64,000 nt of DNA from Dehalococcoidia bacterium (GCA_965221065.1 OZ244861.1:2867956-2931955); one strand, 5' to 3'; shown: positions 9,330 through 58,376, counted from the first letter of the stretch. Notes: generated by a model from the letters alone, not told the origin. A program made the numbers and translations.

Positions 9330-9399
<70 letters not shown>

Positions 9400-9446
9400 A
9401 CGCAGATCTCCGGCTTCCCCAGCGTACAGGCCGCTCGGACTGCGGT

Positions 9447-33640: not shown

Positions 33641-33717
33641 GGGCCATTAGCTCAGCAGGTTAGAGCGCAGTCCTGATAAGACTGAGGTCCCTGGTTCGAG
33701 TCCAGGATGGCCCACCA
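33641..33717 (+). tRNA. tRNA-Ile (anticodon GAT), rrn-spacer type
   Basis: GGGCCATTAGCTCAGCAGGTTAGAGCG, anticodon loop CTGATAA, GGTTCGAGTCCAGGATGGCCCACCA; 240 nt after the 16S. Confidence 0.88.
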
Positions 33718-35294
33718 TCATGTACCGAATTGCGAACTCCTTCGGCGAGCGCTACTTCAGCAGCATCTTTGCGGCCGATCGGGCTGTCTTCCGGCATCGG
33801 GATCGTGTAGTTGATCACAGCCCGTCCGGGCTCGACGTCGATCCGCTTGATGAACGTGCGCAGGAACGCCTTCGACTCGGTGATGTCGCTGGTGCGCAAG
33901 AAGTCGGCCATGTCGGCGGCGAACTCAGCCACCACCTCAGCCTTGTCCAGCAGCGTGCGCCGTTCGGCCAGAGCCTTCCTGGCCTGCTCGGCGGCTGTCT
34001 CTAACTGCTCCTTGCGCGCCATGTGCTCGCGGATGCGCGGCGCCGCGTCATCGATTTCCAGGTCGGTCTTCTCGATCACGCGCCAGATGCGGTCCAGCAT
34101 CTGGCGGATCTCGCGCAACTCCGCCTCAATCATCTCCAATCGCTCGCGCTCCTGGTGTGCGGCGCCGTCCATCTCCTCGTCCAGCATCTTGACCAACTCG
34201 CGGATGTTGCTCTCGGTCAGCACGTGGTCGCGGAGTTGGTTGAGGATCAGGGTCTCGAACCGCTTGGCGTTGAGCCGGGGCGTCTCGCAACTGCCTGAGC
34301 CGCGCTTGAGCAGCGAGCCGCAGACGTAGTAGGAGTAGCGCCCGCCCTTGGCCTCGGACGCCGTCAACTGCTTGCCGCAGAGCGCGCAAGCGACCAGACC
34401 GGAGAGCAAGTAAGGGCTGGACGCGCGGCGCGGGTTGGACTTGGCCGGCGCCCGCGCTTCGAGCATGGTTCCCACCTGCTCGAACTCTTCCTTTGAGACG
34501 ATCGCCGGCACCGCATCCTCGACTCGGACCGGCTCAGATCCGTCGGTCGCCTTCAGTCCCCAGACCAGGGTGCCCATGTAGACCTCGTTGGAGAGGATCT
34601 TGTGCACCGCGGTCTTGAGCCAGCGCTTGCCCGTGGCCGAGGGAATGCCCTCTGAGTTGAGCGTCTTCACGATCTCGAGGATGCTCTGGCCGCGCAGCGC
34701 CATCTCGAAGATGCGCCGCACGACGGCGTCCCGGGGCGGGTCGAGTTCGAGCCGAGGTCGCTGCTTGCCGCCGTCCGTGACGTAGACCTTGCGGTAGCCG
34801 AGCGGCGCGTGCGAGGCCAGGTAGAAGCCGCGCGAGGCCGACTCGCGCATCCCGCGGCGGACCTCCTGGGCGAGGTTCTCGGAGTAGAACTCGTCCACGC
34901 TCTCGATGATCGCTTCCATCAGCTTGCCGGTCGGGGTGTCGTCGGCGTGCTCGGTGATCGAGGTGACGCGGATCCCTCTGCGTCTGAGCATCGACTTGAA
35001 GGCGACCGCGTGTTCTCGCTTGCGCGTGAACCGAGAGAACTTCCAGACCAGGATCTCCTGGAACGGCGCATCCGTCCGCTGGGCTTCGTCGAGCATCTTC
35101 TGGAATTGCGGCCGGTCGGCGACGCGGCCCGACTCCGCTTCATCGACGTACTCCCGCACGACGCGGTAGCCGTTGCGCCCGGCGAAGTCGCGCAAGGCGC
35201 GCAGTTGAGCGGCGACGGAGAGGTCGACGTCCTGGCGGTCTGAAGAGACGCGGGCGTACAGCGCCGCTGGAATCTGATCGAGTGGTTGTTTCAT
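33660..35294 (-). CDS. Large serine recombinase (integrase) of integrated mobile element
   Basis: N-terminal resolvase domain ALYARVSSDRQ with catalytic Ser; recombinase domain; zinc ribbon CALCGK..YYVCGS..GSCE; long coiled-coil. AGGAG RBS. The last ~19 codons lie antisense within tRNA-Ile. Confidence 0.88.
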   Translation of the reverse strand: MKQPLDQIPAALYARVSSDRQDVDLSVAAQLRALRDFAGRNGYRVVREYVDEAESGRVADRPQFQKMLDEAQRTDAPFQEILVWKFSRFTRKREHAVAFKSMLRRRGIRVTSITEHADDTPTGKLMEAIIESVDEFYSENLAQEVRRGMRESASRGFYLASHAPLGYRKVYVTDGGKQRPRLELDPPRDAVVRRIFEMALRGQSILEIVKTLNSEGIPSATGKRWLKTAVHKILSNEVYMGTLVWGLKATDGSEPVRVEDAVPAIVSKEEFEQVGTMLEARAPAKSNPRRASSPYLLSGLVACALCGKQLTASEAKGGRYSYYVCGSLLKRGSGSCETPRLNAKRFETLILNQLRDHVLTESNIRELVKMLDEEMDGAAHQERERLEMIEAELREIRQMLDRIWRVIEKTDLEIDDAAPRIREHMARKEQLETAAEQARKALAERRTLLDKAEVVAEFAADMADFLRTSDITESKAFLRTFIKRIDVEPGRAVINYTIPMPEDSPIGRKDAAEVALAEGVRNSVHDGGPSWTRTRDLSLIRTAL

Positions 35295-35640
35295 CGGAGG
35301 TGTCCTTATCTCCTGGCCGTCTGACGGAATTGTGGCAGTTCAATGTTCGAAACATCGTAGCCGGATCAGCAGGCAGTGATCCGAGATTCTTCACCTCGCC
35401 CGGTCTGGACCTGCCTTGTTGTTGGGAGTGCTATGTCAGCGGTGACCGACCGAGGCGTCAGGCCGTGTTAGACAAAGGCTGCAACCATGCCGTTCCCTAG
35501 TGAATAGGATCTGAAGATGCGGTGAGTTTGACTCCCTTGAGCGCAGAAGGCGGCGCACGGCGGTGCTCTCACTCTGGATGGCCGACGATTGCCATACGCT
35601 GGACTCCATGTGACGAAAGGGTGGAGGAGTCAGACGCATC

Positions 35641-38600
35641 GTGAGGGGAAAGCGGAAGTCGAAGGGCAGACGAAGGAACGAGCAGAAGAGAAGTCGTCGG
35701 TCTGAATCGCCTGCAACTCCGATCCCGCGTCCTCGGCGCCAGAGTGGGCCGGCGAGGAAGGGCGCGGAACTAGAGGTACTGCAACCCAGTCCGGCGGTAG
35801 GTGACGAGTCATGGCTACCTGCAGCCTGGGAGATATCCCGCTCAGGCGCGACAGCAGGACGAGGGTTCCACTTCCAGGATGTGGTCGGTGCGTGGCTGGC
35901 TTCGCGTCTGGCATCGGGTGGCCTGAGCGCCGACAGCCTGATCCCTGAAGGTATCGACGACCTGCAAGTTGAAGGGCCTGAACCGATCCAGCTGGAGGTT
36001 AAGTCGCGTCAGACGCGAGTCGGACCATTTCCGGTCAAGGATGGCGCGCCGGTGATCTATGAGTCCCTGGTTCGGCACTCAGAGCGCTTTGGGAGCGGGC
36101 GAAAGCTGAAGGTCGTCCTCGAACAAGGATTGGTCGGCCTCGATGCTCAGGAGGACGACGGGATCAGAGCACTCCCGCTAGCCAAGGTACTTGAGGGCGT
36201 CCCAGCCCTCGGCAAGTCCGTCGCGAAGCGAATCGACGGAAGCGAACTCTCCACGGCGGAATTCGAGACCCTCACCTCACTCACTGAAGTGATCATCGGC
36301 ACTTGGGGCCAATTCCTTCAGGACACTGAGCACCACATTCGGCAGTTGGTGGCGCTCCCTCCAGCCGCCCTAGGCAGCATCTCACTCTCAATTCGGTCGA
36401 TGGTGGCCGACGCGGCCGACGCCAACGCCGACCCGGAGTTCGGGCGCCGAGTCGAACTGGACAAGACCGCTGTCATCGATCGGATAAGTGAGGCGGCAGC
36501 GTTGTTGGACATCGACTCAATTGAGACTGCGCTGAGTCGAGGAATCTGCAGTCCGCTGGACGCGACGCCGGTGGAGACTGGTGATGCGTATTACGAGGGC
36601 GTCTCCACTCAGCCGGGACACGTTGCTGCGGGGCTGGTCGTGCCACGGCCTGATCTGAGCGGGAGGGTGGTCCATGGATTGCGGGCAGAGAAGGCCGTCC
36701 TGTTGACGGGGCCATCGGGCGTGGGCAAGTCGGCGGCGATGTGGTCGCTGCCGTCAGCACTCCCTGGAGTCGTCTGGTTTCGCCTTATCCGCGTCACAGA
36801 CGCGGATCTCGCCGATATCGAGCGATTGGTTCAGGCCTACTCCACGTCATCGAGGTGGTCGGTTGGCCTGTTAGCGGACGCGGTCGGGCGGGGAGAGTTT
36901 GAAGCCTGGTCTCGATTGCGCGAGAGAATCGCCGCTATCCCTGGCGCTCTCTTGGTCGGCACGGTGCGCCGCGAGGACTTGTGCACGCTTGGTGAGCTTG
37001 CCGATTGCCACCTTGTGACCGTCGCGCTCGACGAACCAGCGGCCGAGGTCATCCATGCCGGACTGCTTCGTCGAGGTGCCACCTCTGTCCCCTATTGGCG
37101 AGAGGCGTATGAAAAATCGGACGGTCTCACGATGGAGTTCACGTATCTACTGACACGCGGTGCACGGCTGCGCGATGTCGTTGCCGATCAGGTCGGCGAC
37201 CGGGTACGACAGGGTCGCGAACTCGAGCTGCAAGTTCTTGCGCTCGTGTCGACCGCTGATCGCTGGTCTGCCTCGGTGCCCACCCCTGAACTGCAAGAGC
37301 GGCTTCAAGTCGATGCTTTTGAGCTCAAGGCCGCCATGGCACGCCTCGTCGAGGAGCATCTCGTCGTCGACCGCGGCGGCAGCGTCAGCGGCGTGCACCA
37401 GGTCAGATCTGAAGCGATTTCAGAAGCGATTCATGAGTACCCGCCCCCGCTTCTGAGCGATACTGTCTCCGCCGCCCTGAAGATGCTCCGAGTCGAGGAG
37501 CTCTCTCGCTTCGCGTATGAGGCGCTGCGCGATGTGCCAGATCTGGAATCCCTCGTGCTAGGGACCCTACGAGACATGGGTCAGGAGGACATTGAACAGT
37601 TGCTAGCCGGTCTTCGGGCCTTGGAGATGGTCGACTTTCACCGACAAGCGTCGGCGTGGGCCGAAATCACGGAGCGGCACGAAGTGCCGCCGGCGCATCG
37701 TCCACTCGTGTTGGAATTCACCGCAGCCAGCTTGGACTTTCCGGATCTCTTTCCGCAGTCGCTTGTCTCGGCAAGCGAAGAGATCCGCGAGCTGCCAGTG
37801 CAAAGCACGATGCGCGACAACTTGCTTGAGATGTTTGGGTTGGAGCAGATCGCTATTGCATTGAACACGGTGTCTGACCCGAAGGAATGCGCCCGTCTGC
37901 TCAGAGCGGCGCGGGGCACGTCTGTGGATTGGGCTCCATTGGTTGAGTCGCTAGAGAGTTCCTCAACCCTGCCTAGCGCCCTCGAACACGCCGAAACCAG
38001 TGAACTGAGCGAGTGTGTTGAGGCGGCGCGCGATGTGTCCGTGAGTCTGGCGGAAGCGGTTGTGCATGCTGCCGGCGGCGTAGAGGCCGTGATGCAACGG
38101 ATTCGCATAGGAGATCCATGGCTCCGTGAGCTGAAGATCGAGCGCGTAGAGGGCCGAACAATAGGTTTAGCTCGATACCTCCACGTCTCGTATGACCAGC
38201 AGGACGATGCCCGTGATCGCTCCGTCGCCCTTGGACGCCAACTGCTGAGGCTCTTGCCATCAATCGACCAAGTCGACATCAAACCCTTGGGTCCAGACGG
38301 CGAGGTTCTCAAGATAGGAGGTCAGGAAGTCGCATCCTCTGGATTGCTGCGTCGTTACGATCATGGTTCGGTGGCGATCAGCTGGAATCGTCAGCGGTTC
38401 CAACTCGCACAGTCGTTGCTCGGTGTTTCCGAGACCGAAAGACTGAGCGAACTGGCCAGGCTTCTCGGAGAAACTGCGGCACTTTGTCGAGATTACGGTG
38501 CGGAGTTGGTTAGGCCTTCTGGTCAGTTGAGCGAGACTGAGCGCCTGAATGAGCGTCGGATGCGCATTGACGCGCAAGCTAGAGCGATTCCCCCTCCGCG

Positions 38601-39726
38601 AGGAGACGATCAATTCGATGAGCCCCAAAGGGAGGACCAGGTTGGCGACGCGCCGGACGGGGATCTGTCGTCCTTCATTACGAACATCACGGATAAGAGC
38701 CTGCCCAGACTCCATCACCCCCAACAATGGACCGCACTTTCGGCCTGGCTCAGCGACACCGTGCTGCGGAAGAACGTGGACCACTTCGGTGAGTTGGACT
38801 GGCGGCTGGTCGGCCTCGACGGCCCGCCAGATGCACTAGGTGAGATCTCAGAAACCTTGGATCATATTGACGCTGTGTTGCGCGCAGTTGTCGCAGATCC
38901 GACTGCCATCAGCGCGATTCTGAACGAAGCACGGCGGGGCAATCGGAGGAATGCACTCGCACGCGCTGCTGACGTAGCAAGGCGAGTGTCCCAGAAACAG
39001 ACAAGGCAACGACTCTTGGTGATCGAGACGGCATTGCGCTCGGTCGTGGAGGACGTCGACCTCTATTGGCTCGACAGCGATCGGCGCAGAGGGCTATCCG
39101 AAAGCTTCGCGGTCGGAGTCTCTGTCAGCTCATTGGTCGAATGGAATGCCGCGCTGGAATTGCTTCTTGAAGAAGTTGGCGAGCTTCGCAAGCCAGCCGA
39201 GACTCCGATCATCGCGCCAATCCTAAGGGGCAAGACGGCTTGGAGATTCGCGGTTCAGCTGGTGCCTCAGCCCTGGCCGGTAACAGAGCCCGGCGAGTTT
39301 GAGCGACTGCTGCCTGCACCGATCGAGGAGCGTTTGACTGAACAAGTCGTCAAGTGCCACTCGGCGCTTCAGGTTTTGTCTGGGATCTCGGTTCTGGGTG
39401 TCGATGGGGAGATAGACACGAGACTGAGTCCCGTTGTGGAGCAGGCAGTTCAGGAAGTTACTAAGGCCAATGCGTTGATTCTGGAACTAGGTTCTGATGA
39501 CGTGATCTTGGAGATCGGCATGTGGTTGCGAGAAATTGCCAATCAAGTGAACGCTGAGCTAAAGGGGGACGCCGAACCGGGTGAGTACGCGGCAAATGTC
39601 TGGTCGGGTGCATTTGCCGCCCCATCGCCGGATAGCGAGACATTGAACACTGTTCTCGCCCTCAGCCTGGAGTGGGATGCTAGTCCCGACGGGGCTTTGG
39701 CTCTACTAGAGACGTTGATTCCGTAG
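35641..39726 (+). CDS. Giant STAND-like P-loop NTPase (1361 aa) with putative N-terminal PD-(D/E)xK-like nuclease region; Avs-like antiviral ATPase candidate
   Basis: Walker A VLLTGPSGVGKSAAMW. About 50 aa later hhhhD (SVGLLADAVG). About 25 aa later LLVGTVRRE (TxR). The N-terminal IDDLQVEG..IQLEVKSRQ is a D..E-x-K-like motif. GTG start with GGAGGAG RBS, immediately next to the integrase. Confidence 0.6.
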   Translation: MRGKRKSKGRRRNEQKRSRRSESPATPIPRPRRQSGPARKGAELEVLQPSPAVGDESWLPAAWEISRSGATAGRGFHFQDVVGAWLASRLASGGLSADSLIPEGIDDLQVEGPEPIQLEVKSRQTRVGPFPVKDGAPVIYESLVRHSERFGSGRKLKVVLEQGLVGLDAQEDDGIRALPLAKVLEGVPALGKSVAKRIDGSELSTAEFETLTSLTEVIIGTWGQFLQDTEHHIRQLVALPPAALGSISLSIRSMVADAADANADPEFGRRVELDKTAVIDRISEAAALLDIDSIETALSRGICSPLDATPVETGDAYYEGVSTQPGHVAAGLVVPRPDLSGRVVHGLRAEKAVLLTGPSGVGKSAAMWSLPSALPGVVWFRLIRVTDADLADIERLVQAYSTSSRWSVGLLADAVGRGEFEAWSRLRERIAAIPGALLVGTVRREDLCTLGELADCHLVTVALDEPAAEVIHAGLLRRGATSVPYWREAYEKSDGLTMEFTYLLTRGARLRDVVADQVGDRVRQGRELELQVLALVSTADRWSASVPTPELQERLQVDAFELKAAMARLVEEHLVVDRGGSVSGVHQVRSEAISEAIHEYPPPLLSDTVSAALKMLRVEELSRFAYEALRDVPDLESLVLGTLRDMGQEDIEQLLAGLRALEMVDFHRQASAWAEITERHEVPPAHRPLVLEFTAASLDFPDLFPQSLVSASEEIRELPVQSTMRDNLLEMFGLEQIAIALNTVSDPKECARLLRAARGTSVDWAPLVESLESSSTLPSALEHAETSELSECVEAARDVSVSLAEAVVHAAGGVEAVMQRIRIGDPWLRELKIERVEGRTIGLARYLHVSYDQQDDARDRSVALGRQLLRLLPSIDQVDIKPLGPDGEVLKIGGQEVASSGLLRRYDHGSVAISWNRQRFQLAQSLLGVSETERLSELARLLGETAALCRDYGAELVRPSGQLSETERLNERRMRIDAQARAIPPPRGDDQFDEPQREDQVGDAPDGDLSSFITNITDKSLPRLHHPQQWTALSAWLSDTVLRKNVDHFGELDWRLVGLDGPPDALGEISETLDHIDAVLRAVVADPTAISAILNEARRGNRRNALARAADVARRVSQKQTRQRLLVIETALRSVVEDVDLYWLDSDRRRGLSESFAVGVSVSSLVEWNAALELLLEEVGELRKPAETPIIAPILRGKTAWRFAVQLVPQPWPVTEPGEFERLLPAPIEERLTEQVVKCHSALQVLSGISVLGVDGEIDTRLSPVVEQAVQEVTKANALILELGSDDVILEIGMWLREIANQVNAELKGDAEPGEYAANVWSGAFAAPSPDSETLNTVLALSLEWDASPDGALALLETLIP

Positions 39727-39851: not shown

Positions 39852-40778
39852 CTAGGCGGACGAGCGCCTCCGCATGATTGGATCGGCCCCTCGAAGCACC
39901 TCAATGGCGTCTTTCACGCTGCCGAAGACGAGAGCCGTGAGATGACAGATCATCAAGGCTTCGCATTGCCATCGAAGCCGGTACAGATCAGCCCCTCGAA
40001 CGACAAACTGCTCATGGCGCTCAGTGTGATGGACGTTGAAGTTTCGCGTTGCCTGCACGCGCTTGGCAAAGTCGGCGCAGTCCCCATTGAGTTCCAAGAG
40101 ATCCGCGAAGGGTTCACACAGCCGCCGGATGCGACTCGGAAGGCCTGCGCTCACCCCGATCCCGAAAGCTGGAGCATAGGTGTCAAGGGCTTCCACGACC
40201 TTAAGGAACTGAAGGTCGCCAGGCAGTACGCCATCGCCATATCGGGCGTCGAAGAACAGGCCGAACGGCTGTGGCCACCCGCGATAAGCAGCAATCCAGT
40301 TGGCCAGCGCGGCTGAGAGGCCGCCGGGAAGGTCTTGATGGGAAAACGTCGCTAGCCAGTGCTTGACGTTCGGCCCTTCGGTGCTGTGTTGCCTGGACTC
40401 GAAGAAAATCTGCACTTGAGTTCGATGGTCTTGGTTGGTGTCGATTGTGTTGTCGTGGGCGGCGAGATAGCCATCGAGTGACGTGATCGCAACCGGATTG
40501 TCCGTGGCCAAGCAAAGGAAGTCGCGCAGACGTGCGGCCCAATCAATCAAGTCATCGATGTCCCACGAGTCGGAGGTCGAGAGGGTGAAGTGTGCCCGCT
40601 GAGTCACCTGTGCTTCGGTGGACCATGGTGAGGGACTCGGAATCGAGTACCCGAACCCGACCTTGCCTTCTACAAATGATCTATCCGCAACGGCACGGGT
40701 GCAGGAGCCTTGAACGTGATCGTGGCCTGACCTACATCGATGTCGTGCTGAGCGGAGATGCCTGACATGCCGAGCCAT
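39852..40778 (-). CDS. Hypothetical protein (308-aa ORF; possibly the 3' part of a frameshifted gene with 40670..41194)
   Basis: Only one in-frame Met, at the ORF start; overlaps the upstream ORF by ~108 nt in a different frame; no recognisable domain. Confidence 0.4.
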   Translation of the reverse strand: MARHVRHLRSARHRCRSGHDHVQGSCTRAVADRSFVEGKVGFGYSIPSPSPWSTEAQVTQRAHFTLSTSDSWDIDDLIDWAARLRDFLCLATDNPVAITSLDGYLAAHDNTIDTNQDHRTQVQIFFESRQHSTEGPNVKHWLATFSHQDLPGGLSAALANWIAAYRGWPQPFGLFFDARYGDGVLPGDLQFLKVVEALDTYAPAFGIGVSAGLPSRIRRLCEPFADLLELNGDCADFAKRVQATRNFNVHHTERHEQFVVRGADLYRLRWQCEALMICHLTALVFGSVKDAIEVLRGADPIMRRRSSA

Positions 40779-41194
40779 TCATCGAGACCTTCTATCCGGC
40801 AGGTCAATCGTTCGAAGCGGGGGCCGAGCTTGCCGAAGTGTCCGCCCACCAACAGAACATTGGCGAATATCCTGGCGGTGGCGAAAATCGCCCCACTAAC
40901 CGGTGCCTGAAGCCCGCTATCTGCTCGGAGACAACCGATTAGAGTCACTGCTCCGTGTTGCTGCGTGTATCCGAAGACTCGTCCAATCTCAGCGCCAGCC
41001 CCATGCAGCGACTCGCTGGCCAACGAAAGCAGGTCCGTGCTCATGTAACCAAAGGTCTCGAGAATGACGACGCCGCTTGTTGAGACGGTCAAGGAACCTG
41101 GCACCTGACTGGCCCGAGTACGGTCTGCCGGCAGCCAGAAGAAGCCGGAGTCACTGAACTCTGTTGTTCTCATGAATACGAGCCTAGGTGCCAC
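40670..41194 (-). CDS. Hypothetical protein (174 aa; possibly the 5' part of a frameshifted ~450-aa gene)
   Basis: ATG start; protein-like sequence; its 3' end overlaps 39852..40778. Confidence 0.4.
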   Translation of the reverse strand: MAPRLVFMRTTEFSDSGFFWLPADRTRASQVPGSLTVSTSGVVILETFGYMSTDLLSLASESLHGAGAEIGRVFGYTQQHGAVTLIGCLRADSGLQAPVSGAIFATARIFANVLLVGGHFGKLGPRFERLTCRIEGLDEWLGMSGISAQHDIDVGQATITFKAPAPVPLRIDHL

Positions 41195-41447: not shown

Positions 41448-42227
41448 TCACTCCCTGACTATCCCCGTTCCAGCCTGTCGCCACTCGGCATGCACGATGC
41501 AGGCGTCAAGCCGAACGCGGCGTACCGTGACCTTGGCGTCAGAGCGATCCAAGGCGACGACAGCTGCCTCCGCGCCATTGACGAGACAGGGAATGGCGGG
41601 GGCGTCGCTGGCAAACGCCTCAATCGGAGAATCGTGAATCGAGTCGAAGATGCTGGTCGGCACTTCGACCAGCTGATAGTGGTGCGGCACGGCGTCTGCC
41701 GCCTCGCGAAACGCGCGCAGCATGACGATCTGCGTCACGTGCTCCTGGTATTCGCGGAAGAGCGCCTGGGTGCGCTGACGCCGATCTCTCGCGGACCTGA
41801 CGTCCTGAATCCAAGCCGCTTCGGTCAGTTTGGAGATGTGCAGGAACGTAGGCGACAGTCTCCTGGCGGCGGTTGATTTGAGCGAGAGTCGCCGCACAGG
41901 CTCGTCACCTGGATAGACGGCGAGGTCCAGGAAGCGATGGGTGGCCGACTCCGGCGTTTCGACTCGCCAGCCGATGTGCTCGCAGGCGTTCTGGAAGACC
42001 GACTCGAAAGACTTGAGACCGAGCGGAACCGTAGTCGCGCTGTGGTGAACCGAAAGCGCCAACCCAAAGTACTCGATCCAGTCCGGCTGCTCTGTGAGCC
42101 AGGTGCCGCGCGCCTTGATCTCCGCCTGTGGTGCATCGGACAACGAGTCGACGACCTGGGCGACGAACTCGATCTGCACCGGCGAGAACGTCTCAAGCGT
42201 GGCCTTGAGTTCTTCCAGCGTCAGCAT
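41448..42227 (-). CDS. Putative Type II restriction endonuclease (assigned by position only)
   Basis: Its start overlaps the methyltransferase stop (ATGCTGA at 42221..42227); 259 aa; weak D..(S/E)xK-like stretch FLDLAVYPGDEPVRRLSLKS; no database support. Confidence 0.4.
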   Translation of the reverse strand: MLTLEELKATLETFSPVQIEFVAQVVDSLSDAPQAEIKARGTWLTEQPDWIEYFGLALSVHHSATTVPLGLKSFESVFQNACEHIGWRVETPESATHRFLDLAVYPGDEPVRRLSLKSTAARRLSPTFLHISKLTEAAWIQDVRSARDRRQRTQALFREYQEHVTQIVMLRAFREAADAVPHHYQLVEVPTSIFDSIHDSPIEAFASDAPAIPCLVNGAEAAVVALDRSDAKVTVRRVRLDACIVHAEWRQAGTGIVRE

Positions 42228-43168
42228 GCGCCTGCCAGTCTTCGCTCGATTAGGTCCACGAAGGCGCGCTTCAACTCAATCCCCACCCACTTACGGTTCA
42301 ATTCGTCCGCGGCCAGGAGCGTGGTTCCGGAGCCTGCGTACGGGTCAAGGACGACGCTGCCCATCTGACTGGTGATCGCGATGCATCGCCGCGCCAGGGA
42401 GAGCGGCATCATGGCTGGATGATCGTCCGTGTCTCCGTTGGGCCGCTGCAGCGGTTCGGTCGGAATCTCCCAGACGCTGCGCAGTCGCCTGCCTCGCGGA
42501 CCCTTCACAGCGTCGATGTCGTAGTAGTAGTCCTGGGACTTGGATAGCAGGAAAATCGTTTCGTGCGCCTTGGTCGGACGGTCGCGGACTGACTCCGGGT
42601 GCGCGTTCGGCTTGGACCAGATCACTTCCGCACGGACCCACCAACCGGCGTCCTGGAGCGCGAGCGCCAACCGCCAGGGCACTCCGATCAGGTCCTTTGG
42701 CTTGAGTCCCTCGGGTGTCGGCGGGCGGACGCTCATCGCGCGCGCCCGGTTCTTGCGATCGGGCGCACGGTAGCGGCGGTTGCCAGAGGTATAGGAATCG
42801 CCCACGTTGAGCCAGACGGTTCCGTCGTCGCGCAGCACGCGCTTGACCTGCTCGAATGCGGAGACGATGCTGCAGACGTAGGCGTGCAGGCTTTCGTCCC
42901 TTCCAATCTGTTCGTCAACGCCATAATCTCGCAGCGACCAATACGGCGGCGATGTCAATACCGTCTGCACCGATCTGTCGGGCAGTGACTGCAGCGCCTG
43001 TTCTGCGTCGCCGTGCAGGAGCGTCGATTGGCAGATGTCGTCGAAACGCGAGTGCTCGAAGTCGTCAATGCGTCTGTAAGGGCTGCGACGGTTGGTGGCG
43101 AGTCGGGTACCGCGCGAGCTGAACTCTGCGACTTGTTTGGCCCCGATGGCTGTCTGGTCGTCTTTCAC
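42221..43168 (-). CDS. DNA methyltransferase, beta-class (N6-adenine or N4-cytosine)
   Basis: Motif IV VLTSPPYW precedes motif I VLDPYAGSGTT; this order is characteristic of beta-class amino-MTases; 315 aa. Confidence 0.8.
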   Translation of the reverse strand: MKDDQTAIGAKQVAEFSSRGTRLATNRRSPYRRIDDFEHSRFDDICQSTLLHGDAEQALQSLPDRSVQTVLTSPPYWSLRDYGVDEQIGRDESLHAYVCSIVSAFEQVKRVLRDDGTVWLNVGDSYTSGNRRYRAPDRKNRARAMSVRPPTPEGLKPKDLIGVPWRLALALQDAGWWVRAEVIWSKPNAHPESVRDRPTKAHETIFLLSKSQDYYYDIDAVKGPRGRRLRSVWEIPTEPLQRPNGDTDDHPAMMPLSLARRCIAITSQMGSVVLDPYAGSGTTLLAADELNRKWVGIELKRAFVDLIERRLAGAC

Positions 43169-43328: not shown

Positions 43329-44072
43329 TCAGGAGCGCTCAGTACGGTTCTGGCAACCGGGAGAACAGCGAGAGGACTGGGGCGACAGGCCGCACCACTC
43401 ATCTGCTTCGCCGCTGAGTCTCCCTTCGATCCTGCGACCGTCGGGACGGCGTGAATGGACTCGATCGCAGGCCGCCGGTCTGGGCTCCCCGAATCCCGAC
43501 CCCGAGCTGTCTCGTTTCGCAGTGGGCCAAACGGCGCATACTGGGCCGTCGCGAGCCAGCGTGCGACGGCCGGTGACGTGGACCGGCAAGTTGTAGCGGC
43601 TGTTCCCTAGGTCCTCTGGAACCGCCCGCAGTAGCCGTTCAACCGCTAGGGAACCATCGAACTTGATCAGTTCGAGCGGGTGCGCTCTTTGGTCATCCTT
43701 AGGCCGCCGCGTACCGTGGTAGCGCAGGTAGGGAGCGTTTCGAGTGGTCATGATCGTGACCCGGACCAGGCGGTCCTCCCATCGAGGAGGAACGGCTGGT
43801 CGCGGCCATCGCGGTGCAGCACGCGGACGGCGTCGGGCGGGATCGAACAGAGCCTTGTCATCGAGGCGGGACTGGCGCAAGGCTCGGTGGGGCGGATTGA
43901 GCTGAGTAAGTTCCCAGCCATTTGAGAGAGCCCGCTCGGTCAGCGCCGCCGGTGTCCCGTGCGAGCCTCCGGTGTGGGTGAGATGACGCAGCGGAAGCGC
44001 GACCAAATGATCGAGCTGCAACCAGGACCATTCGGCCAGCGGACCAAGCATGCGTATATCGGGCTGTTTCAA
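43329..44072 (-). CDS. Hypothetical protein (247 aa), Arg/Pro-rich
   Basis: ORF in the element; no recognisable domain; some overlap with a plus-strand shadow ORF. Confidence 0.35.
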   Translation of the reverse strand: MKQPDIRMLGPLAEWSWLQLDHLVALPLRHLTHTGGSHGTPAALTERALSNGWELTQLNPPHRALRQSRLDDKALFDPARRRPRAAPRWPRPAVPPRWEDRLVRVTIMTTRNAPYLRYHGTRRPKDDQRAHPLELIKFDGSLAVERLLRAVPEDLGNSRYNLPVHVTGRRTLARDGPVCAVWPTAKRDSSGSGFGEPRPAACDRVHSRRPDGRRIEGRLSGEADEWCGLSPQSSRCSPGCQNRTERS

Positions 44073-44349
44073 GGGGCGGGCAATATCGGGTCCGCCGGAT
44101 GTCGGGAGGCTGCGACCTCGATTGGACCTGAGACCCGGGGCCAGCGGGCGTCCGACCGCCTAGGTCCTATCGGACGCCGGGTGGCCCTGCGCCTTGCGCA
44201 GGCTGAATCTGCATCAACAGGCGGGACTGCGCCAAGTCTCCACATCCGTTGTCATGTAGGCGGCCTCCCGCTCGAGGCCAGAGCCTCAACCGGGTGGCGC
44301 ACCGCCGCGCGACCAGCCACACAGCGCCATCAAGTCCATCTGGTCGAAC

Positions 44350-46920
44350 TCACTCGGACGGCTTCTGGCGCTTGGTTCGCGGCCTATTGCGTTTCTTCTT
44401 GAGCGGCGCATCGTCGGGCGTCTCCGCCTGCTCCTGGGCCTGTTCGGCCTCAGCAGCGAACTGCTTGGCCCGCTTGCGGCGCTCGGCTTGCTGCTTCTCG
44501 ATGTCCTCGGCCGAGGTCAGATAGGCGGCCGCCGCCTGGCGGATCTGCTCCTCCCGCTCCGGATGGCCGAGGTCCGGCCTGCGCACAGTCATCGAGAACG
44601 TCGGCAGGGTGTCCGTGCCGACCGAGGCGCGGACGTAGCAGTGGTGCCGCGGCTGGAGCACGAGGTCGTCTTCCGAGATCCGCTGTCGGCCCAGCTCCCA
44701 GAGCAGCTCGCGCGCGTCGGCGCCGGCCACCTGGAACACGGCCAGGCAGCCGATGTTGGCCAGCAGGGTGTGGCGCATCGTGGGCGAGAGCGCGTCCAGC
44801 TTGGCCAGGCTCTGGGTGGCGAGCAGGAACGAGGCGCCGTACTTGCCCAGTTCGGAGAGCATCGACTCGAAGTCGACGCCGGGGATCGTCTGCATCTCGT
44901 CGACCACGACCAGCGCGCCGCGGCGCTGCGCCTGGGGCAACCGCTCCTGCTCTCGGATGGTCGCGTCGACCAGGTTGAGTACCGAAGCGCCGACCAGGGC
45001 GGCCACGTCGCGGCCGACCGCACCCTGGGCCGTGGAGACCAGAAGGATGCCGCCCTCGAGGATGGTCCGCCTGAGGTCGACGGTCGAGCGCGGCTGGCCC
45101 AGGATCGCCCGCGCCCGCTCCGAGGAGGCGTAGTAGGTGAGGCGGGTCTGGACCGGGGCCAGGGCTTCCGCCTGGTATTCGGTGCGCCAGCCGCCGAAGT
45201 CGCGCGCCCACCATTCGAGCAGGTAGGGGTCGCGCAGCTTCTTCAGCACGTCCCCGCGGAACCCCTTGTGCGTGAGCAGCCGTAGGGCGTCGAGGATCGT
45301 GTACTGCTCGTGCTCCTCGGTCGAGGGATGCGCGTTGGCCTCGTGCAGGGTCTTGACCGTCTGCTCCAGGATCGACTGCATTCTCGGACCCCACTGTTCC
45401 CACAGCCCGCGAGCGACGCGGACGACCGAGTCGGCGGTCCGGTCGCGGTCCGAGAAGATGCGCGTATCGAGCAGGTTGATGCCGACCGCGCCGCGCTGGT
45501 CGGCCAGGTCGATCAGCCGGACCTCCGAGACGAGCGACTCGGGCACCTGCTCCAGGATGTCGGAGACGAGGTCGGCGTGCGGGTCGACCACGACGATCGC
45601 GTCGCGGTCGCGGCCGGTCGCCTTCTCGCTGAGCTTGTGGGCGACGATATGGCGCATCAGGGTCGATTTGCCCATCCGGGTGCGGGCCACGTAGAGGTGG
45701 TGGCGGCGCAAGAGATCGTCGGGGAGGCGGATCTCGCGGGGCAGGTCGGCGGTCGTGTCGCCGACCACTGCGCCCTCCCTCAGCGCCTGGCGGGGCGGCA
45801 AGAGCAGCTTGGAGCGGGAGCGCTCCAGCTCGTGCGTCTCGTCCGAGGGACCGGGCGGATGCCAGAGCGCGGCCGCCTCGCGCACGCCGAGCACGCTGTG
45901 GCGTCCGAACAGGCCCGCCCCGGCCGGCTCCAGCGTGATCGCCTCGGGCGGGAGCGGGCGGACCTTGCCCCGCTTGAACTGCGCGCCGGCGGGATGGTCG
46001 TAGTGCGCGTAGGCGGCCGCGACCCGCTCCAGCAGCTGCGTCGCCCGGGTCCGGCCCAGCTCCTCGGGTTCGCCCTTCTTGGCGGGCAGCACGCAGACCA
46101 GTTCGACCTCGCCCAGGAAGGCTGAGCGCTCGCACTTCTCGCGAACGAGGCGCGGGTCGAAGACGCGCTTGCGGGAGCCCTTCCAGCGCCTCCTGATCCA
46201 GGTGAGCACGGCCAGCGCGCCGACCACGGCCACCACGAGTGCGACCACGTTTCCGATCTCGCCGGCCTGCCACCACGTGACGCCCAGGGCCGTGCCGCCC
46301 CCGAACAGGACGAGCACGGTGATCGCGAAGGGATCGAGGCCGCTCATCAGCGCCGGCGCGCCGGCCGGCGGCGGAGGCGGCGGGCGCTCGGCTTCGTAGA
46401 GCCGGGCCAGGTGATGTTGCGACCAGTCCGGGCGCAGCGCGCGCAGCTTGAGCCGGGCCACGAGGCGCTCGTCCGGCTCGGCCTCGGCCAGCGCCCCGAT
46501 CAGGGCGAGCAAGGGGTCGGAGCCGGGGTCGACGAGGTCGCGGTCCTGGAATGTGCGCAAGGGGACCTGCTCGGGGCCTGAGGCGCGCAGGGTCAGTGAC
46601 CAGGCTTGCTCGTCCTCCGCCAGCTGGAGCGGATCCTCCGCCTCGTCCAGCTGGCGCACCCGCGCCTGCGGGTAGTGGGCCGCGATCTGGCCGCGCACGG
46701 TCTCGCCCCGGAGGCAGCGGACCATCAGCCCGACCCCCGACTGGCCCGCGGCCAACTCGAGGGAGAAGGGCTCCGGCACGGCGATCGAGCCGAGCAGGTT
46801 CTCAACGCCCAGGAGCGTGCGTTCGCCCGTGCGCGGCGGGGTCACAGCGAGCAGCAGCGGCCCGGCCGGACCGCGACGGAAGCGGCGGAAGGGATTAGGG
46901 ATGGATGGTGTCATGGTCAA
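44350..46920 (-). CDS. FtsK/HerA-superfamily DNA-translocase-like ATPase with N-terminal TM region (conjugative coupling protein TraD/VirD4/TcpA-like)
   Basis: TM helices near residues 180..240; Walker A HLYVARTRMGKSTLM; Walker B ALVVVDEMQ; 856 aa. Confidence 0.55.
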   Translation of the reverse strand: MTMTPSIPNPFRRFRRGPAGPLLLAVTPPRTGERTLLGVENLLGSIAVPEPFSLELAAGQSGVGLMVRCLRGETVRGQIAAHYPQARVRQLDEAEDPLQLAEDEQAWSLTLRASGPEQVPLRTFQDRDLVDPGSDPLLALIGALAEAEPDERLVARLKLRALRPDWSQHHLARLYEAERPPPPPPAGAPALMSGLDPFAITVLVLFGGGTALGVTWWQAGEIGNVVALVVAVVGALAVLTWIRRRWKGSRKRVFDPRLVREKCERSAFLGEVELVCVLPAKKGEPEELGRTRATQLLERVAAAYAHYDHPAGAQFKRGKVRPLPPEAITLEPAGAGLFGRHSVLGVREAAALWHPPGPSDETHELERSRSKLLLPPRQALREGAVVGDTTADLPREIRLPDDLLRRHHLYVARTRMGKSTLMRHIVAHKLSEKATGRDRDAIVVVDPHADLVSDILEQVPESLVSEVRLIDLADQRGAVGINLLDTRIFSDRDRTADSVVRVARGLWEQWGPRMQSILEQTVKTLHEANAHPSTEEHEQYTILDALRLLTHKGFRGDVLKKLRDPYLLEWWARDFGGWRTEYQAEALAPVQTRLTYYASSERARAILGQPRSTVDLRRTILEGGILLVSTAQGAVGRDVAALVGASVLNLVDATIREQERLPQAQRRGALVVVDEMQTIPGVDFESMLSELGKYGASFLLATQSLAKLDALSPTMRHTLLANIGCLAVFQVAGADARELLWELGRQRISEDDLVLQPRHHCYVRASVGTDTLPTFSMTVRRPDLGHPEREEQIRQAAAAYLTSAEDIEKQQAERRKRAKQFAAEAEQAQEQAETPDDAPLKKKRNRPRTKRQKPSE

Positions 46921-46959
46921 GGTCCGTTCATCAGTGGGAAGCCGATCGGCTCGGGCGGC

Positions 46960-47478
46960 TCAGGGGAGTGGGATCTGGCCGGTACTGCTCAGCAGCCGCA
47001 GGACCTGGGCGGCGGCGATCGTCACCACGCCGAAGCCGATCCAGGCCAGGGACTCGCAGAGCCGATCGCCCGTCCACTCCCGGTAGCGGCGCCGCAGCTG
47101 CTCGCCGCCCCAGTAGAGGCCGTAGACGGTGATGACGGCCCCGAACGCGGTCATGAGGGCCAGCGCGTCTCCCAGCGCCTGGACGGGGCTGAATGTCTCG
47201 ACCCGATGGACGATCATCGCGGCCACTAACGCCAGGCTCAGGCAGAGCAGGAACAGATCGCGGCCGACGCCCCGCGCTCGCGCACGCAGACTTGGTCGCC
47301 CGCGCGGCGAGCGGGGCGGAAGCGGTTCAAGCCGCGGCGCCGAGCCGCTGGCAGGCTGAGCTGCACGGCCGAGGGGCGCGATCAGCCAGATCAGGGCCCG
47401 GCCTCCGGGCCGGGCCGGGTCGTGTGGCTGGTAGGGGTCTCGTGAATACATGTGGGTACTCCGTTCGTAAGGGTTCAC
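46960..47478 (-). CDS. Hypothetical membrane protein
   Basis: Several hydrophobic helices (FLLCLSLALVAAMIV, AFGAVITVYGLYW, GFGVVTIAAAQVL); start uncertain. Confidence 0.4.
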   Translation of the reverse strand: MNPYERSTHMYSRDPYQPHDPARPGGRALIWLIAPLGRAAQPASGSAPRLEPLPPRSPRGRPSLRARARGVGRDLFLLCLSLALVAAMIVHRVETFSPVQALGDALALMTAFGAVITVYGLYWGGEQLRRRYREWTGDRLCESLAWIGFGVVTIAAAQVLRLLSSTGQIPLP

Positions 47479-47750
47479 GGGATCAGGCCGACCGGCGGCG
47501 GCGCCAGCGGCAGGGCGGGCTGGGCGGCCGCGCCGATGACGAGTTCGGCCGAGCCGAAGCCGGCCACGGCGATCGCGACCGCCAATAGCGCGGTCAGCAT
47601 CGCCCGCTTGCCGCTCTCGGCCTGGCCGCTCGCGCCTGCGGCGGTCACGTAGAGCGTGGCGCCGAAGGCGAAGTAGCCGGCGCCGAATGCCCCGGCCAGG
47701 GCGACCAGCAGCGCGGTGAACAGGGGGATGGATTGGACGAGTTCAGACAT
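47475..47750 (-). CDS. Small hydrophobic protein (91 aa), possibly pilin/VirB2-like
   Basis: Two long Ala/Gly/Leu-rich hydrophobic segments; its stop overlaps the start of 46960..47478; lies between the coupling ATPase and the 553-aa gene. Confidence 0.4.
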   Translation of the reverse strand: MSELVQSIPLFTALLVALAGAFGAGYFAFGATLYVTAAGASGQAESGKRAMLTALLAVAIAVAGFGSAELVIGAAAQPALPLAPPPVGLIP

Positions 47751-48143
47751 ACGAGGTGCTCCATTCAGGATTGGATCCGGTGGCGGCGTCCCGTACGGGA
47801 CGCGTGACGGTTCAGCACATGGCCCTCCTCCGTTCTCGCAGCTCAGACGGCGCCGCTAGAGCGCGGGTCCGAGCCGCGTTGACGCTCAGCGAGCGGTGCG
47901 CTGCCGGAGACGGGCGCCCGCCTGTGCGCTTGATTCGAAGCGGCGTTCTCAGATCCATCACAGCACATCCGTTCTCTCAACGAGAGAGAACTAGTGTTCC
48001 CTATTCAGAGGGCGGTTGCAATGACGTCGAAGGCCGACGGTCCACATATCCCGCCGCCTCGGGAGGGCCAATCTGTCGCGAAGTTTGCAGAACGGGCCGG
48101 TCTGGGGACACCTGCGAGCGCGCACCGGAGGGCCTGACGCCGT

Positions 48144-49805
48144 TCAGTCCCAAGCGAACGGATCCATCTGCGCCCAGCCGCCCGGGCCACGCCAGGCCGG
48201 GCCCAGGGGACCGAGCGTTTCGATCCGCTCGCGGTCGGAGACCAGCAGCGGCAGTTCGACCCGCGCCCGCGCCAGCTCCGAGCGGGCAACTGTCAGGAAG
48301 CGGTCGGCGGCCAGCGGGTCGTCGAACACCACCCAGAGCTGCGGTTGGGCGCCGTGATCGTCGACCGGGCGGCGGCTGGCGAAGTAGCACAGGTAGGGCG
48401 CCAGCCGGGTTCTCATCGTCCGTGGCCGGATCGCGCGCCGCTCCCATTCGAGGAAGGCCGGCCTCAGCTCGCCGCCCGAGCGCAGCAGGATGAAGGCGTC
48501 CGGGTGGATCGAGCGCAGGCCGCCCTCATGACGGAAGTAGCGCGAGGCCCGGTGGGGCGGGTCGAGCTGGCTCAGCTCCAGACCCAGTCCGAGGGCCTGA
48601 GCGGCCAGCGCCGCGGCGAAGCCGTGCACGGCCTCGGTGTGATCCAGGTGGCGCAGCAGCTGGCGCGAGCGGCGGCCGGGCACGTCGCGCCAGTCGAAGG
48701 CTGCGCCAGACTCGTTGGAGCCCGAGCTCCAGCGCCGGCGTGCGTCGGCGGCCGAGGAGCGGTCCCGGCGCGCGAGCATCACCAGCGCCCGGTCCGTGAG
48801 CGCCAGCCGGCGGCGGCCCTCCAGGCGCGGGGCGCGGACCAACTCCAGCTCCTCCAGGGAGCGGGTCAGCTGCGAGACCCGGCGGCGGCCGACGCCCAGG
48901 AGCCCCTCAAGCTGATCGGGCCCAAGCCAGGGCCAGTCGGCGATCAAGTCGAGGGTCCGCTTCTCGGCCGGCCCCAGCCGGCTGGGCAGCAGTCGGCCCT
49001 GGGCGGCGTGTTCACTGAGCGGACGCGGCAAGGAACGCCTGAGCGGCAGACGCTCGCGGGCCCACTCGCCCGGCGTGCGGATGAACCCGAGCGCGTCGGC
49101 GAGGCTCAGGGCCGGCCCGCCCGCGGCCGGGATCCAGACCGCGTCGTCGGCCGAGGCTCGCGCGGCATGCCGCTCAAGCGCGAGGAGGCAGCTGAACGGC
49201 AGACCCCGCGCGATCCGGCGCAGATGGCGCAGGCGGGTCCCATCCGAAACGAGGAACAGCGCGGCCGAGTAGCGCGGACCCTCGCCCAGGCGGCGCAGAC
49301 GCTGGGCAGCCGCGGTCCGCTCGACGCCCCGGCCCAGTCGCAGCAGCGCCAGCGTGCGCCCGTCGGCCAGCGCCGCGGCAGCATCGGGTGGAGACGAGCG
49401 GTACCAGCGCAGACGGATCGGGTAGGCGGCCTCGGCCAGCGCGGACGCGAGCCGGTAAATCACAGCCGCCCCGTCCAAGCGGACGATCAGGTTGCGGCGC
49501 CACTCCTCCGAGACCGGAAGCTCGGCCAGCAGTTCCTTCAGGCTGGCGCCGCGCTCACGGGCGAGACGCTCCAGGCCGGCTGAACTGAGCAGGAAGCGGC
49601 GGGCGCCGGAGACGAACTCGCCGGCGTGCGGGAGCGACTCGACCAGACCCTGCTCAGACAGCGCACCCAGGCCCAGATAGACCCCGGCGGTCGAGCGGCC
49701 CGAGAGCGACGCCAGCTCGATCCGATCGACGAGCGGCGTCACGGCCAGCTGCCCCAGCAGATCGATCTGCCCGGGACTCAACCCCCGCTCCATCTCCCGC
49801 TCCAA
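48144..49805 (-). CDS. Hypothetical protein (553 aa) with repeated winged-helix-like segments
   Basis: Long ORF with ATG start, Leu/Arg-rich; no confident domain; could be a replication-relaxation or relaxase-like function (speculative). Confidence 0.4.
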   Translation of the reverse strand: MEREMERGLSPGQIDLLGQLAVTPLVDRIELASLSGRSTAGVYLGLGALSEQGLVESLPHAGEFVSGARRFLLSSAGLERLARERGASLKELLAELPVSEEWRRNLIVRLDGAAVIYRLASALAEAAYPIRLRWYRSSPPDAAAALADGRTLALLRLGRGVERTAAAQRLRRLGEGPRYSAALFLVSDGTRLRHLRRIARGLPFSCLLALERHAARASADDAVWIPAAGGPALSLADALGFIRTPGEWARERLPLRRSLPRPLSEHAAQGRLLPSRLGPAEKRTLDLIADWPWLGPDQLEGLLGVGRRRVSQLTRSLEELELVRAPRLEGRRRLALTDRALVMLARRDRSSAADARRRWSSGSNESGAAFDWRDVPGRRSRQLLRHLDHTEAVHGFAAALAAQALGLGLELSQLDPPHRASRYFRHEGGLRSIHPDAFILLRSGGELRPAFLEWERRAIRPRTMRTRLAPYLCYFASRRPVDDHGAQPQLWVVFDDPLAADRFLTVARSELARARVELPLLVSDRERIETLGPLGPAWRGPGGWAQMDPFAWD

Positions 49806-49877
49806 CCCGGCCCCGACGGGCCCAACGGCGGCCCTCGTCCGGCCTGCTGCGCTTACAGGAACACTTGTACTACGATG

Positions 49878-51089
49878 AGCCCAGAGATGCGAGTTGTCCG
49901 AGTTTTGTCCGGGGTTTGTCCAGGGTTCGAGGCCCTACCCGTGTACAGGAAGATGGACTGGACAACTCCTGGACAAGTGGGGGCGGGAGCCAGTGTTTTA
50001 CCGGGCGAAGTCCGTGCGGCGAGCGGGATCGGGCAAGCAACTTGTGCGCGTGCTGGTTCTAGTGGCCGTTGGACAGTTGGAACGGCGGGGGCGGTCGTGA
50101 TGGAGGGGCAAGAGGCGCTGAGCGAGGGCGGGGCGGGGGGTGCAACACCTCGGTCCCCTCAGGACGGCGGGGCGGTTACGGCCGGTCCCCGAGCGGGGCG
50201 GCTGGGCGGCCTCCTACAGGACCTCCTCGCCGCCCGCGGCCGCCTCAGGACGTCCGAGTTGCTGGGCGTCAGCGAGCGCACGCTCCAGCGGGCTGAGGCG
50301 GAGGGGCGTCTGACGGAGCAGCTCTGCCGGACCTTGGAGCGCTACGAGGCGGGGTTGCTCGAGTCCCGTGAACAGCCTGTGGATACCGTGGACAACGCGC
50401 AAGAACTGGCGCGTCTCAGGCGGCGTCTGGACAAGCTGGAGCGGGTGCAGCAAGCAGTGTCGGACGACCTGCCCGAGGTGCCCGAGGCGCTGGCGCGACT
50501 TGAGGCTTCCGTGGGAGACCTGCAGCAGCGAGTGGCTGCGCTAGAACATGGCGGCGATGGCGGGGATGGCGGGCGTCCGGCTGGGTTGGTGGGCGCTTCG
50601 GCGCGAGCGACATCGACGGGATTGACGGCGTCGACAGCGTCGACGAGGTCAAGCTCGCGGGCAACCAGGGCTCCCCACCGCCGCTACCCCGAGCTGGTCA
50701 CGGTTGAGGCGGAAGCGGAGGAGGAGCGGTTCTACGGCGCGGCGATGGAGGACATCGTCCAGTGGCGTCTGGCGCGGCTGCGACGGGAGCAAGTGGCGGC
50801 GACGACGGGCAAGACGGACAGGACGGGCAAGATGGGCAAGACGGGCGCCACCCTGGAGCGTCTGCGGGCCGACGAGCGGCTGCTGGAGTTGGAACAGGCG
50901 TTGGTGGGCGAACACGGCCTGACCCTGCCTCCCGCCGACCGCCCCTGGGACGGGATCCGGCGGCAGTCGGAACTGCGCGTGCTCGACCAGGCCATCGGCC
51001 GGCTGCGGCGCGACCGGCGCGGGGCCCAGCTCGCGCACTGGAGCTTGCGGCTGCTGACGTTGGGGTTGTGGGGACGACGGCGAGGTTAG
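49878..51089 (+). CDS. Hypothetical coiled-coil protein (start uncertain)
   Basis: The C-terminal 250 aa are clearly helical/coiled-coil ([34 protein letters not shown]); the N-terminal region is of doubtful coding quality. Confidence 0.35.
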   Translation, partial: SPEMRVVRVLSGVCPGFEALPVYRKMDWTTPGQVGAGASVLPGEVRAASGIGQATCARAGSSGRWTVGTAGAVVMEGQEALSEGGAGGATPRSPQDGGAVTAGPRAGRLGGLLQDLLAARGRLRTSELLGVSERTLQRAEAEGRLTEQLCRTLERYEAGLLESREQPVDTVDNAQELARLRRRLDKLERVQQAVSDDLPEVPEALARLEASVGDLQQRVAALEHGGDGGDGGRPAGLVGASARATSTGLTASTASTRSSSRATRAPHRRYPELVTVEAEAEEERFYGAAMEDIVQWRLARLRREQVAATTGKTDRTGKMGKTGATLERLRADERLLELEQALVGEHGLTLPPADRPWDGIRRQSELRVLDQAIGRLRRDRRGAQLAHWSLRLLTLGLWGRRRG

Positions 51090-51143
51090 GTGCGGTGCTC
51101 AGGCGATCTCTCCACGATGCAGGGCATCATCAGGTGATGCGAC

Positions 51144-52067: not shown

Positions 52068-52189
52068 GCTGCGCTGCGTCGTGCGCCCACGGAGGGCACG
52101 GACCTATGCTGATAGCGGCGCGCAGATGACGGCTGCCCGGTCGCCGGGTTGCGCGCGCCGTTGGCGCAATCAGCGAGAGGGACACCCGC

Positions 52190-52726: not shown

Positions 52727-52964
52727 TCGCGAGCCTGGCAGCCGCCCCATTCGGGCGCCAGTCCAGCTGAGTGAGCCGCGCCCCACCCGAGGCTCCGCTC
52801 CGACTGAACGCCGTCTTCGCCCTACCGGTCTTCCTTTCCACGCCGCACCTGAAATCGACGACATGGCGAGAGAGAGAGAGAGGGCTTGAGGGCGATCGCT
52901 CTGATCCCGAACCAGACGACCGATGGCCTGAGTTCTCGACCAGCGCTCGGGATACCTCCGCTTG

Positions 52965-58202: not shown

Positions 58203-58376
58203 CAGCGACCACCCGGACCGGATTCGTCCCGCCTCCACTCAACAACTCTCCCCACCCACCCACCGAATAGGAGGGCCGCCTATGGCCTCTGGCCGACCGT
58301 GCTCCCGCACGGCTTCACGGTCGCCGGACTCGGCGACCGCAACCACCCGAACCCACCATCCGAACAGGAGCAAGAG

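Follow-up and report, generated by a model that had tools for sequence, protein, structure and literature searches.

The 64,000-nucleotide (nt) stretch of DNA analysed here, called the window in the following, stems from a Dehalococcoidia bacterium (GCA_965221065.1 OZ244861.1:2867956-2931955). Between positions 35641 and 39726 (+ strand, stop codon included) it carries an intact open reading frame (ORF) that encodes a protein of 1361 amino acids (aa). By analogy to characterised receptors, this gene probably encodes a stand-alone pattern-recognition nuclease of the Avs (antiviral STAND) type. Structural models and residue conservation show a predicted N-terminal DNA nuclease of the Cap4/LmuA-type PD-(D/E)xK class with intact catalytic residues, followed by a predicted STAND switch composed of a nucleotide-binding domain (NBD), helical domain 1 (HD1) and a winged-helix domain (WHD), in which the key residues are intact as well. 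Modeling and sequence divergence further support the view that the C-terminal region is a large, faster-evolving, sensor-like domain. At the homologous loci and in the window, the gene stands alone: a survey of 568 neighbour ORFs at 41 loci, clustered into families, revealed no conserved partner gene and no neighbour family present at more than six of the 41 loci.

Nuclease and STAND switch in the N-terminal half

The protein follows the tripartite layout of Avs proteins, with an N-terminal effector, a central STAND NTPase and a C-terminal region which, with 760 aa, exceeds the 400 aa taken as the minimum for the class. An AlphaFold2 (AF2) model of aa 41-640, built from 33 family sequences, reached a pLDDT of 82.5 and a pTM of 0.73. 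When this model was compared with the PDB using Foldseek, the top match was the SeAvs3-terminase complex (8dgc; E 4.7e-11, 693 columns), followed by SAMD9, EfAvs5, the plant NLR RPP1, CED-4, archaeal STAND-like ATPases, MalT (8bob), NOD2 and Cap4 (6vm5, 6wan). Among PDB sequences, the family profile matched guanylate kinases only, through the P-loop.

The N-terminal tail (aa 1-55; 35641..35805; this and all following features of the gene lie on the + strand) is variable, very basic and disordered, with a mean pairwise identity of 0.18 and a pLDDT of 30-36 across model residues 1-36. It precedes the nuclease core (aa 56-180; 35806..36180), which is Cap4/LmuA-like according to fold evidence and comprises the RGFHFQ helix, P102-E103, D107, E119-V-K121-S-R123 and E161. 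The effector is thus of a defence-associated type and its active site appears intact, as E103, D107, K121 and E161 are invariant. Profile matches point in the same direction: distant family members reach E 2.7e-5 against Pfam Cap4_nuclease (PF14130), with 24.5-24.9 bits just below the gathering cut-off of 26.2, and E 1.7e-5 against the PADLOC model of LmuA. At E<=0.1, Cap4_nuclease is matched by three of the 33 members, and the window protein is without such a match. A helical linker domain (aa 181-340; 36181..36660), delimited by AF2 secondary structure, connects the nuclease core to the NTPase and carries the invariant motif YEG..TQPxH (Y318, G320, T323, Q324, P325, H327).

The STAND signature is complete, comprising Walker A, Walker B, a sensor-1 arginine behind a hhhT/S strand, HD1 and a WHD with a conserved histidine. 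The NBD (aa 341-462; 36661..37026) is defined by invariant residues, Foldseek matches and Pfam hits in relatives. It contains Walker A (G357-S364; 36709..36732), Walker B ending in D413 (36862..36879) and the sensor-1 motif T441-V-R443-R-E445-D (36961..36978). Walker B reads hhhhD followed by alanine, and the second acidic residue is absent. The alanine in this position suggests a nucleotide switch that would be driven by binding and accompanied by weak hydrolysis. HD1 (aa 463-545) and WHD (aa 546-600), together 37027..37440, were assigned from AF2 elements and from the invariant residues E572, H573, L574, G584, H586, R589 and S590. H586 (37396..37398) lies within a G-x-H-Q-x-R-S motif and is presumably the phosphate-contacting histidine of the STAND WHD. 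The window protein itself yields sub-threshold Pfam matches only, to AAA_16 and nSTAND3. Distant members match nSTAND_NTPase5 (PF25199) at E 4.5e-7; among them, P0337 scores 30.2 bits against a gathering cut-off of 34, which the remote relative P0383 attains with 34.2 bits. At E<=0.1 this profile is matched by 12 of the 33 members, the window protein not being one of them.

The family to which the protein belongs is large. A word-indexed search returned 274 relatives with 35-71% identity, mostly of ~1340 aa, and their precomputed Pfam domains amounted to a single AAA_16 (PF13191) match. When a profile of the N-terminal 600 aa was searched exhaustively, 1477 clusters (50% identity) were obtained at E<=1e-3, and the stricter limit of E<=1e-30 left 484; nearly all of the best 150 of the 1477 clusters have a length of 1250-1400 aa. 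No family member carried a functional name in the searches made. Among 33 diverse members, E103, D107, K121, S122, R123, E161, G357-S364, D413, R443, E445 and H586 are invariant. A strict regular expression recovered the main motifs in 168-206 of 206 full-length members and the accessory motifs RGFxFQ and YEG..TQP in 155 and 112 of them, respectively.

The family also informs the choice of the start codon. The full-length assignment, taken from the ORF list and its translation, uses a GTG start at 35641 and results in a length that matches the full-length family members (~1340 aa). In the public annotation of this protein (P0001, 1281 aa), translation begins 80 codons further 3', so that 35641..35880 is omitted. 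This shorter version would cut W63, R67, G69, R74-G75-F76, F78 and Q79 of the nuclease domain, which are nearly invariant in the 33 members, and we therefore prefer the long GTG start. Moreover, this start is backed by a Shine-Dalgarno-like GGAGGAG sequence, read from the DNA at 35623..35629 (+), 11 nt upstream of the GTG.

The patchy occurrence of homologues in different phyla is consistent with horizontal transfer. In species-representative genomes, 39 loci were found, the nearest (72%) being Dehalococcoidia metagenome-assembled genomes (MAGs). Other hosts are Acidimicrobiia, Kocuria, Cryobacterium, Kribbella, Leucobacter, Acidobacteriota, Rhodothermales, Solirubrobacteraceae and the alphaproteobacterium Pelagivirga. 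The Acidimicrobiia include several MAGs of Candidatus Poriferisodalis, Poriferisocius and Spongiisociaceae, names that point to symbionts of sponges. Plasmids, mainly from alphaproteobacterial hosts, carry distant homologues (27-31% identity); of 12 such records, 7 are predicted to be conjugative, and one of these homologues is annotated as a 'dsDNA nuclease domain-containing protein'.

The C-terminal region and the second giant protein of the window

The putative sensor (aa 601-1361; 37441..39723) is mostly helical and contains two small alpha/beta inserts at approximately aa 826-912 and 1136-1225. The AF2 model of aa 620-1361 is well defined (pLDDT 87.7, pTM 0.76), and structure searches found no meaningful PDB relative for the ~760-aa fold. 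Mean pairwise identity in the family is 0.32-0.48 in the C-terminal part, compared to 0.57 in the NBD and 0.62 in HD1. The first-pass annotation had described the protein as nuclease-STAND-repeat. The nuclease and STAND parts of this label hold, but neither an hhalign self-comparison nor a half-versus-half comparison detected internal repeats in the C-terminal region, so that the repeat part is unsupported. A search for the same sensor behind other effectors, with the C-terminal region as query, returned almost only members of the same family and a few shorter remote relatives. It is conceivable, if rather doubtful, that the region represents a new class of STAND sensor made of non-repeat helical bundles and two alpha/beta inserts. 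Its trigger would then lie outside the mapped Avs set (e.g. an actinophage, Chloroflexota phage or conjugative-element protein), and the class would have spread horizontally among Dehalococcoidia, Acidimicrobiia and Actinomycetes, of which many live in symbiosis with sponges.

One remote relative, P0383 (977 aa), shares the C-terminal sensor region with the window protein (E 4.9e-20) and has an nSTAND5 NTPase that is preceded by only ~120 aa. In P0383, the effector may be absent or of another kind.

A second giant protein is encoded at 349..4911 (+) of the window. It comprises 1520 aa with a Cap4 nuclease, a STAND module and HEAT repeats (Pfam AAA, HEAT, nSTAND5; PADLOC PDC-M54A, E 1.9e-8). 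The first-pass annotation regarded the two as paralogues of the same giant architecture on account of a common order of Walker A, hhhhD and TxR motifs. This motif order is borne out: G357-PSGVGKS-364, VGLLAD413 and T441-V-R443 have counterparts in GEAGVGK306S, LCID369Q and ACR408 of 349..4911, and the spacing is similar (target vs 349..4911). The distances are 242 vs 232 aa from the nuclease lysine to the Walker A lysine, 50 vs 63 aa from there to the Walker B aspartate and 30 vs 39 aa from the aspartate to the sensor arginine. The N-terminal motif D..E-V-K-S-RQ is likewise present (D107...E119-V-K121-S-R-Q, with D107, K121, S122 and R123 invariant), but its proposed alignment with H-S-V-K74-R-Q of 349..4911 holds at the level of the motif only. 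Both proteins thus have a Cap4-type nuclease motif, a helical linker and an nSTAND5-like NBD in common.

How far this likeness extends was assessed by domain-wise hhalign of the two families with reversed-sequence controls. The NBDs align with E 2.3e-5 (probability 76%; reversed control 0.29) and the N-terminal modules as a whole align collinearly over 447 columns with E 6.8e-5 (control 0.16). Similarity therefore reaches beyond the P-loop, and both families touch STAND profiles (nSTAND5, nSTAND1/3). Both findings are contrary to the outcome that the first-pass annotation had named as its refutation. The nuclease (E 0.051, control 0.038), linker (E 0.020, control 0.017) and C-terminal segments (E 0.27, control 0.23) score no better than their reversed controls, so that family-level similarity was found in the NBD and neither along the nuclease nor along the C-terminus. 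In whole-family hhalign, a collinear alignment runs from EVKSRQ/SVKRQ to the winged helix (446 columns, 17% identity, E 4.9e-4, probability 32%), and BLASTP of the two proteins aligned a 52-aa P-loop stretch only (E 0.003).

That the two giant proteins are recent paralogues which diversified in this genome is accordingly very improbable, and this part of the first-pass annotation is largely refuted, even though the domain order, the motif spacing and the collinear profile alignment would agree with it. The C-termini differ in kind, 349..4911 ending in HEAT repeats and the target in a non-repeat alpha/beta-plus-helical region. Furthermore, each protein has a large family of its own with full-length orthologues of 35-70% identity in other taxa, which places the split long before this genome. 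The family of 349..4911 is represented by 108 matches, with members carrying Cap4_nuclease (PF14130), nSTAND1 (PF20703), nSTAND5 (PF25199), NACHT (PF05729) and HEAT repeats. Judged by sequence comparison, the two proteins represent two families of one architectural class with unrelated sensors rather than diverged duplicates.

Relatives of both proteins also occur on a contig of equal length, 129,695 bp, a point that the paralogue explanation could claim in its favour. P0003 (ERZ24894576:ctg48872l) is 67% identical to the target, and P0128 shares 54% identity with 349..4911. Provided that the two records are one contig, over 10 kb separate them, which suggests that a related organism carries relatives of both giant proteins. 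The mobile context proposed for 349..4911, a tRNA-Ala islet, did not find support: three ORFs between 4911 and tRNA-Ala (9324..9399) gave no Pfam match, integrases included, in a scan that covered these three ORFs and not the stretch exhaustively.

Genomic context and alternative functions

The target gene is part of the defence cargo at one end of an integrative mobile element. A tRNA-Ile(GAT) gene, identified by ARAGORN at 33641..33717 (+), is probably the integration site of this element. It is followed at 33660..35294 (-) by a large serine recombinase (Pfam Resolvase 5.7e-33, Recombinase 5.9e-24, Zn_ribbon_recom 7.1e-12), which is divergent from the target gene and confirms the integrase reported next to it. 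The 3' end of the recombinase gene reaches 57 nt into the complement of tRNA-Ile, so that sequence within the tRNA gene specifies the C-terminus of the recombinase. The 3' end of tRNA-Ile does not recur in the window as an attR, which leaves the element undefined on its right side.

The gene was also said to head a defence-like block, and this agrees with an ApeA-HEPN locus and a SmaI-like restriction endonuclease with its methyltransferase downstream. The ApeA-like HEPN gene (39852..41194, -; Pfam) is split into two ORFs: 40670..41194 matches ApeA_NTD1 positions 4-149 (1.9e-18), while 39852..40778 covers positions 160-271 and HEPN_Apea. Over 109 nt, the two ORFs overlap and are read in different frames, which indicates either a frameshift pseudogene or an assembly error. 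Next to it (41448..43168, -), a SmaI-like restriction endonuclease (41448..42227; Pfam SmaI 3.6e-7) and an N4/N6 DNA methylase (42221..43168; N6_N4_Mtase 5e-48) overlap by 7 nt and look like a compact type II restriction-modification (R-M) operon.

Beyond these genes, a TraG/VirD4-like coupling ATPase (44350..46920, -; Pfam TrwB_AAD_bind, TraG-D_C) marks the start of a backbone with 70-73% GC in the GC profile. This value applies to 44000..53000 and on to 64000, compared to 58-66% elsewhere in the window. The high-GC block also encodes VanW (51144..52067), a DnaG-type primase (57132..58202), a Rad52-like single-strand annealing protein (SSAP; 58299..59345) and a PD-(D/E)xK protein (59389..60450). 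The block probably represents backbone DNA of a foreign integrative element, either conjugative or mobilisable.

At the homologue loci, CBASS cyclase, GajA, PtuA-like ATPases, HmaC, type I and IIG R-M, SIR2, HEPN, MADS components, tyrosine integrases and transposases are found within two ORFs of the gene, integrases and transposases being the commonest neighbours. One locus combines insertion sequence elements with SIR2, another (L003) has a complete CBASS together with Mrr and toxin-antitoxin genes beside the homologue, and the locus on the 129,695-bp contig (L004) contains two ThsB-TIR/8xMP pairs. These neighbourhoods, together with a C-terminus that diverges faster than the NTPase, are in line with the earlier proposal of a mobile, diversifying family. 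That the two giant proteins respond to different phage triggers, as was also proposed, would be plausible.

A CBASS block consisting of patatin, CD-NTase, E2 and a 1237-aa Upx-like protein lies directly upstream of the gene in 3 of the 41 loci (L003, 1400..7811; L029, ~4300..9735; L039, ~3400..9742). Block and homologue may form a recurrent two-system island.

The interpretation as an Avs-type immune receptor has to account for several observations that weigh against it. The window protein has no Pfam match above threshold and no PADLOC, NCBIfam or PDB sequence match. The PADLOC models of Avs1-Avs5 match neither the window protein (E<=1) nor seven distant members (E<=0.1). The C-terminal domain lacks the TPR-like character of most characterised Avs sensors (PMC12803255), and no solved sensor is similar to it. 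Furthermore, one homologue adjoins dnaA among housekeeping genes, and the association with defence genes, seen among the two neighbours on either side at ~40 loci, is clear in qualitative terms only. Two other functions were considered. The protein might be a STAND-gated nuclease of integrative or conjugative elements that senses a competing plasmid or element protein, a nucleic-acid or a small-molecule cue and serves competition between elements or element maintenance. The position of the window gene at the edge of an element with coupling ATPase, primase and SSAP would fit this idea, as would the prevalence of conjugative plasmids among the distant homologues, the frequent integrases and transposases and a sensor fold unlike those of Avs that are known to sense phage proteins. 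Defence genes are common cargo of such elements, however, so that the element context does not discriminate between the two functions. Chromosomal defence islands with CBASS, Gabija, SIR2 or TIR account for many of the loci, and all characterised Cap4-STAND proteins sense phage proteins (PMC12803255). Hence, we regard a role in competition between elements as unlikely.

A non-immune role, for example as a MalT/AfsR-like signalling or regulatory ATPase with an N-terminal domain that binds rather than cuts DNA, seems more remote still. Non-defence STAND clades are intermingled with defence clades (PMC12803255), MalT is among the fold matches, the homologue beside dnaA would suit such a role, and weak GntR-type (winged-helix) matches occur in 10 of the 33 members. 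These GntR matches fall on the STAND WHD, however, and a helix-turn-helix output domain is absent. Moreover, neither the acidic residues nor the lysine of the PD-(D/E)xK site varies across the family, which would be unexpected for a mere binding module, no regulon-like neighbourhood is conserved, and the patchy distribution across phyla is typical of mobile defence genes. An Avs-type pattern-recognition nuclease thus remains the probable identity of the gene product.

Comparison with known systems

If the protein is indeed such a receptor, it belongs to a widespread single-gene immune receptor family of ~1500 clusters at 50% identity, with representatives in Chloroflexota, Acidimicrobiia and Actinomycetes, phyla in which hardly any defence system has been tested. 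PADLOC 2.0, NCBIfam and Pfam do not recognise the family, and the only public gene call that was inspected (P0001) has the wrong start. The trigger of a sensor without a solved structural relative would in that case extend the catalogue of patterns recognised by bacterial NLR-like proteins. The concept itself would not change, since Cap4-STAND receptors (Avs3, Avs7 and others) are well known, as is their diversity.

By analogy to SeAvs3 (PDB 8DGC) and SeAvs7 (PMC12803255), a possible mechanism can be outlined. At rest, the nuclease would be kept inactive by the C-terminal domain together with the NTPase in its ADP-bound form. Binding of a foreign protein, most likely from a phage, to the C-terminal sensor would open the NTPase, and subsequent ATP binding might lead to oligomerisation, probably to tetramers. 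The assembled Cap4 domains would then cut dsDNA indiscriminately and stop phage replication at the expense of the cell (abortive infection). For SeAvs7, which combines Cap4 with STAND, the proposed mechanism begins with sensor binding, followed by ADP release, formation of an ATP-stabilised tetramer and DNA cleavage by Cap4 (PMC12803255; Lee et al., 2026, preprint).

The same survey distinguishes 589 STAND clades, 198 of them defence-associated, 684 structural clusters of sensors and at least 90 Avs families, and most of its sensors are TPR-like (PMC12803255). While SeAvs3 is the closest structure to the N-terminal model, its sequence identity to the target is ~11%, it is longer (~2000 aa) and its sensor has no structural similarity to that of the target. 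More generally, we found no TPR-like or otherwise recognisable sensor fold in common with the characterised Avs1-Avs5 and Avs7. Avs7 has a two-lobed TPR sensor and an EF-Tu scaffold, whereas the target sensor is not a repeat domain. EfAvs5/AVAST5 (SIR2-STAND) and SAMD9 differ from the target in their effector, which is SIR2 or that of SAMD9 instead of Cap4, and assemble into filaments.

Lamassu LmuA and CBASS Cap4 share the nuclease type (DUF4297/Cap4_nuclease, PF14130), but the target contains no SAVED domain and has no LmuB/SMC partner. Together with the lack of a conserved neighbour and the low number of loci with CBASS upstream, this does not place the family in either system. Activation of the target would proceed via the fused STAND module, in contrast to CBASS Cap4, which responds to a cyclic oligonucleotide, and LmuA, which is controlled via an SMC complex. 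The family fits the Avs architectural class and none of the families modelled in PADLOC (Avs1-5). With SeAvs7 and other Cap4-bearing Avs, it has the fusion of a Cap4 nuclease to a STAND NTPase in common.

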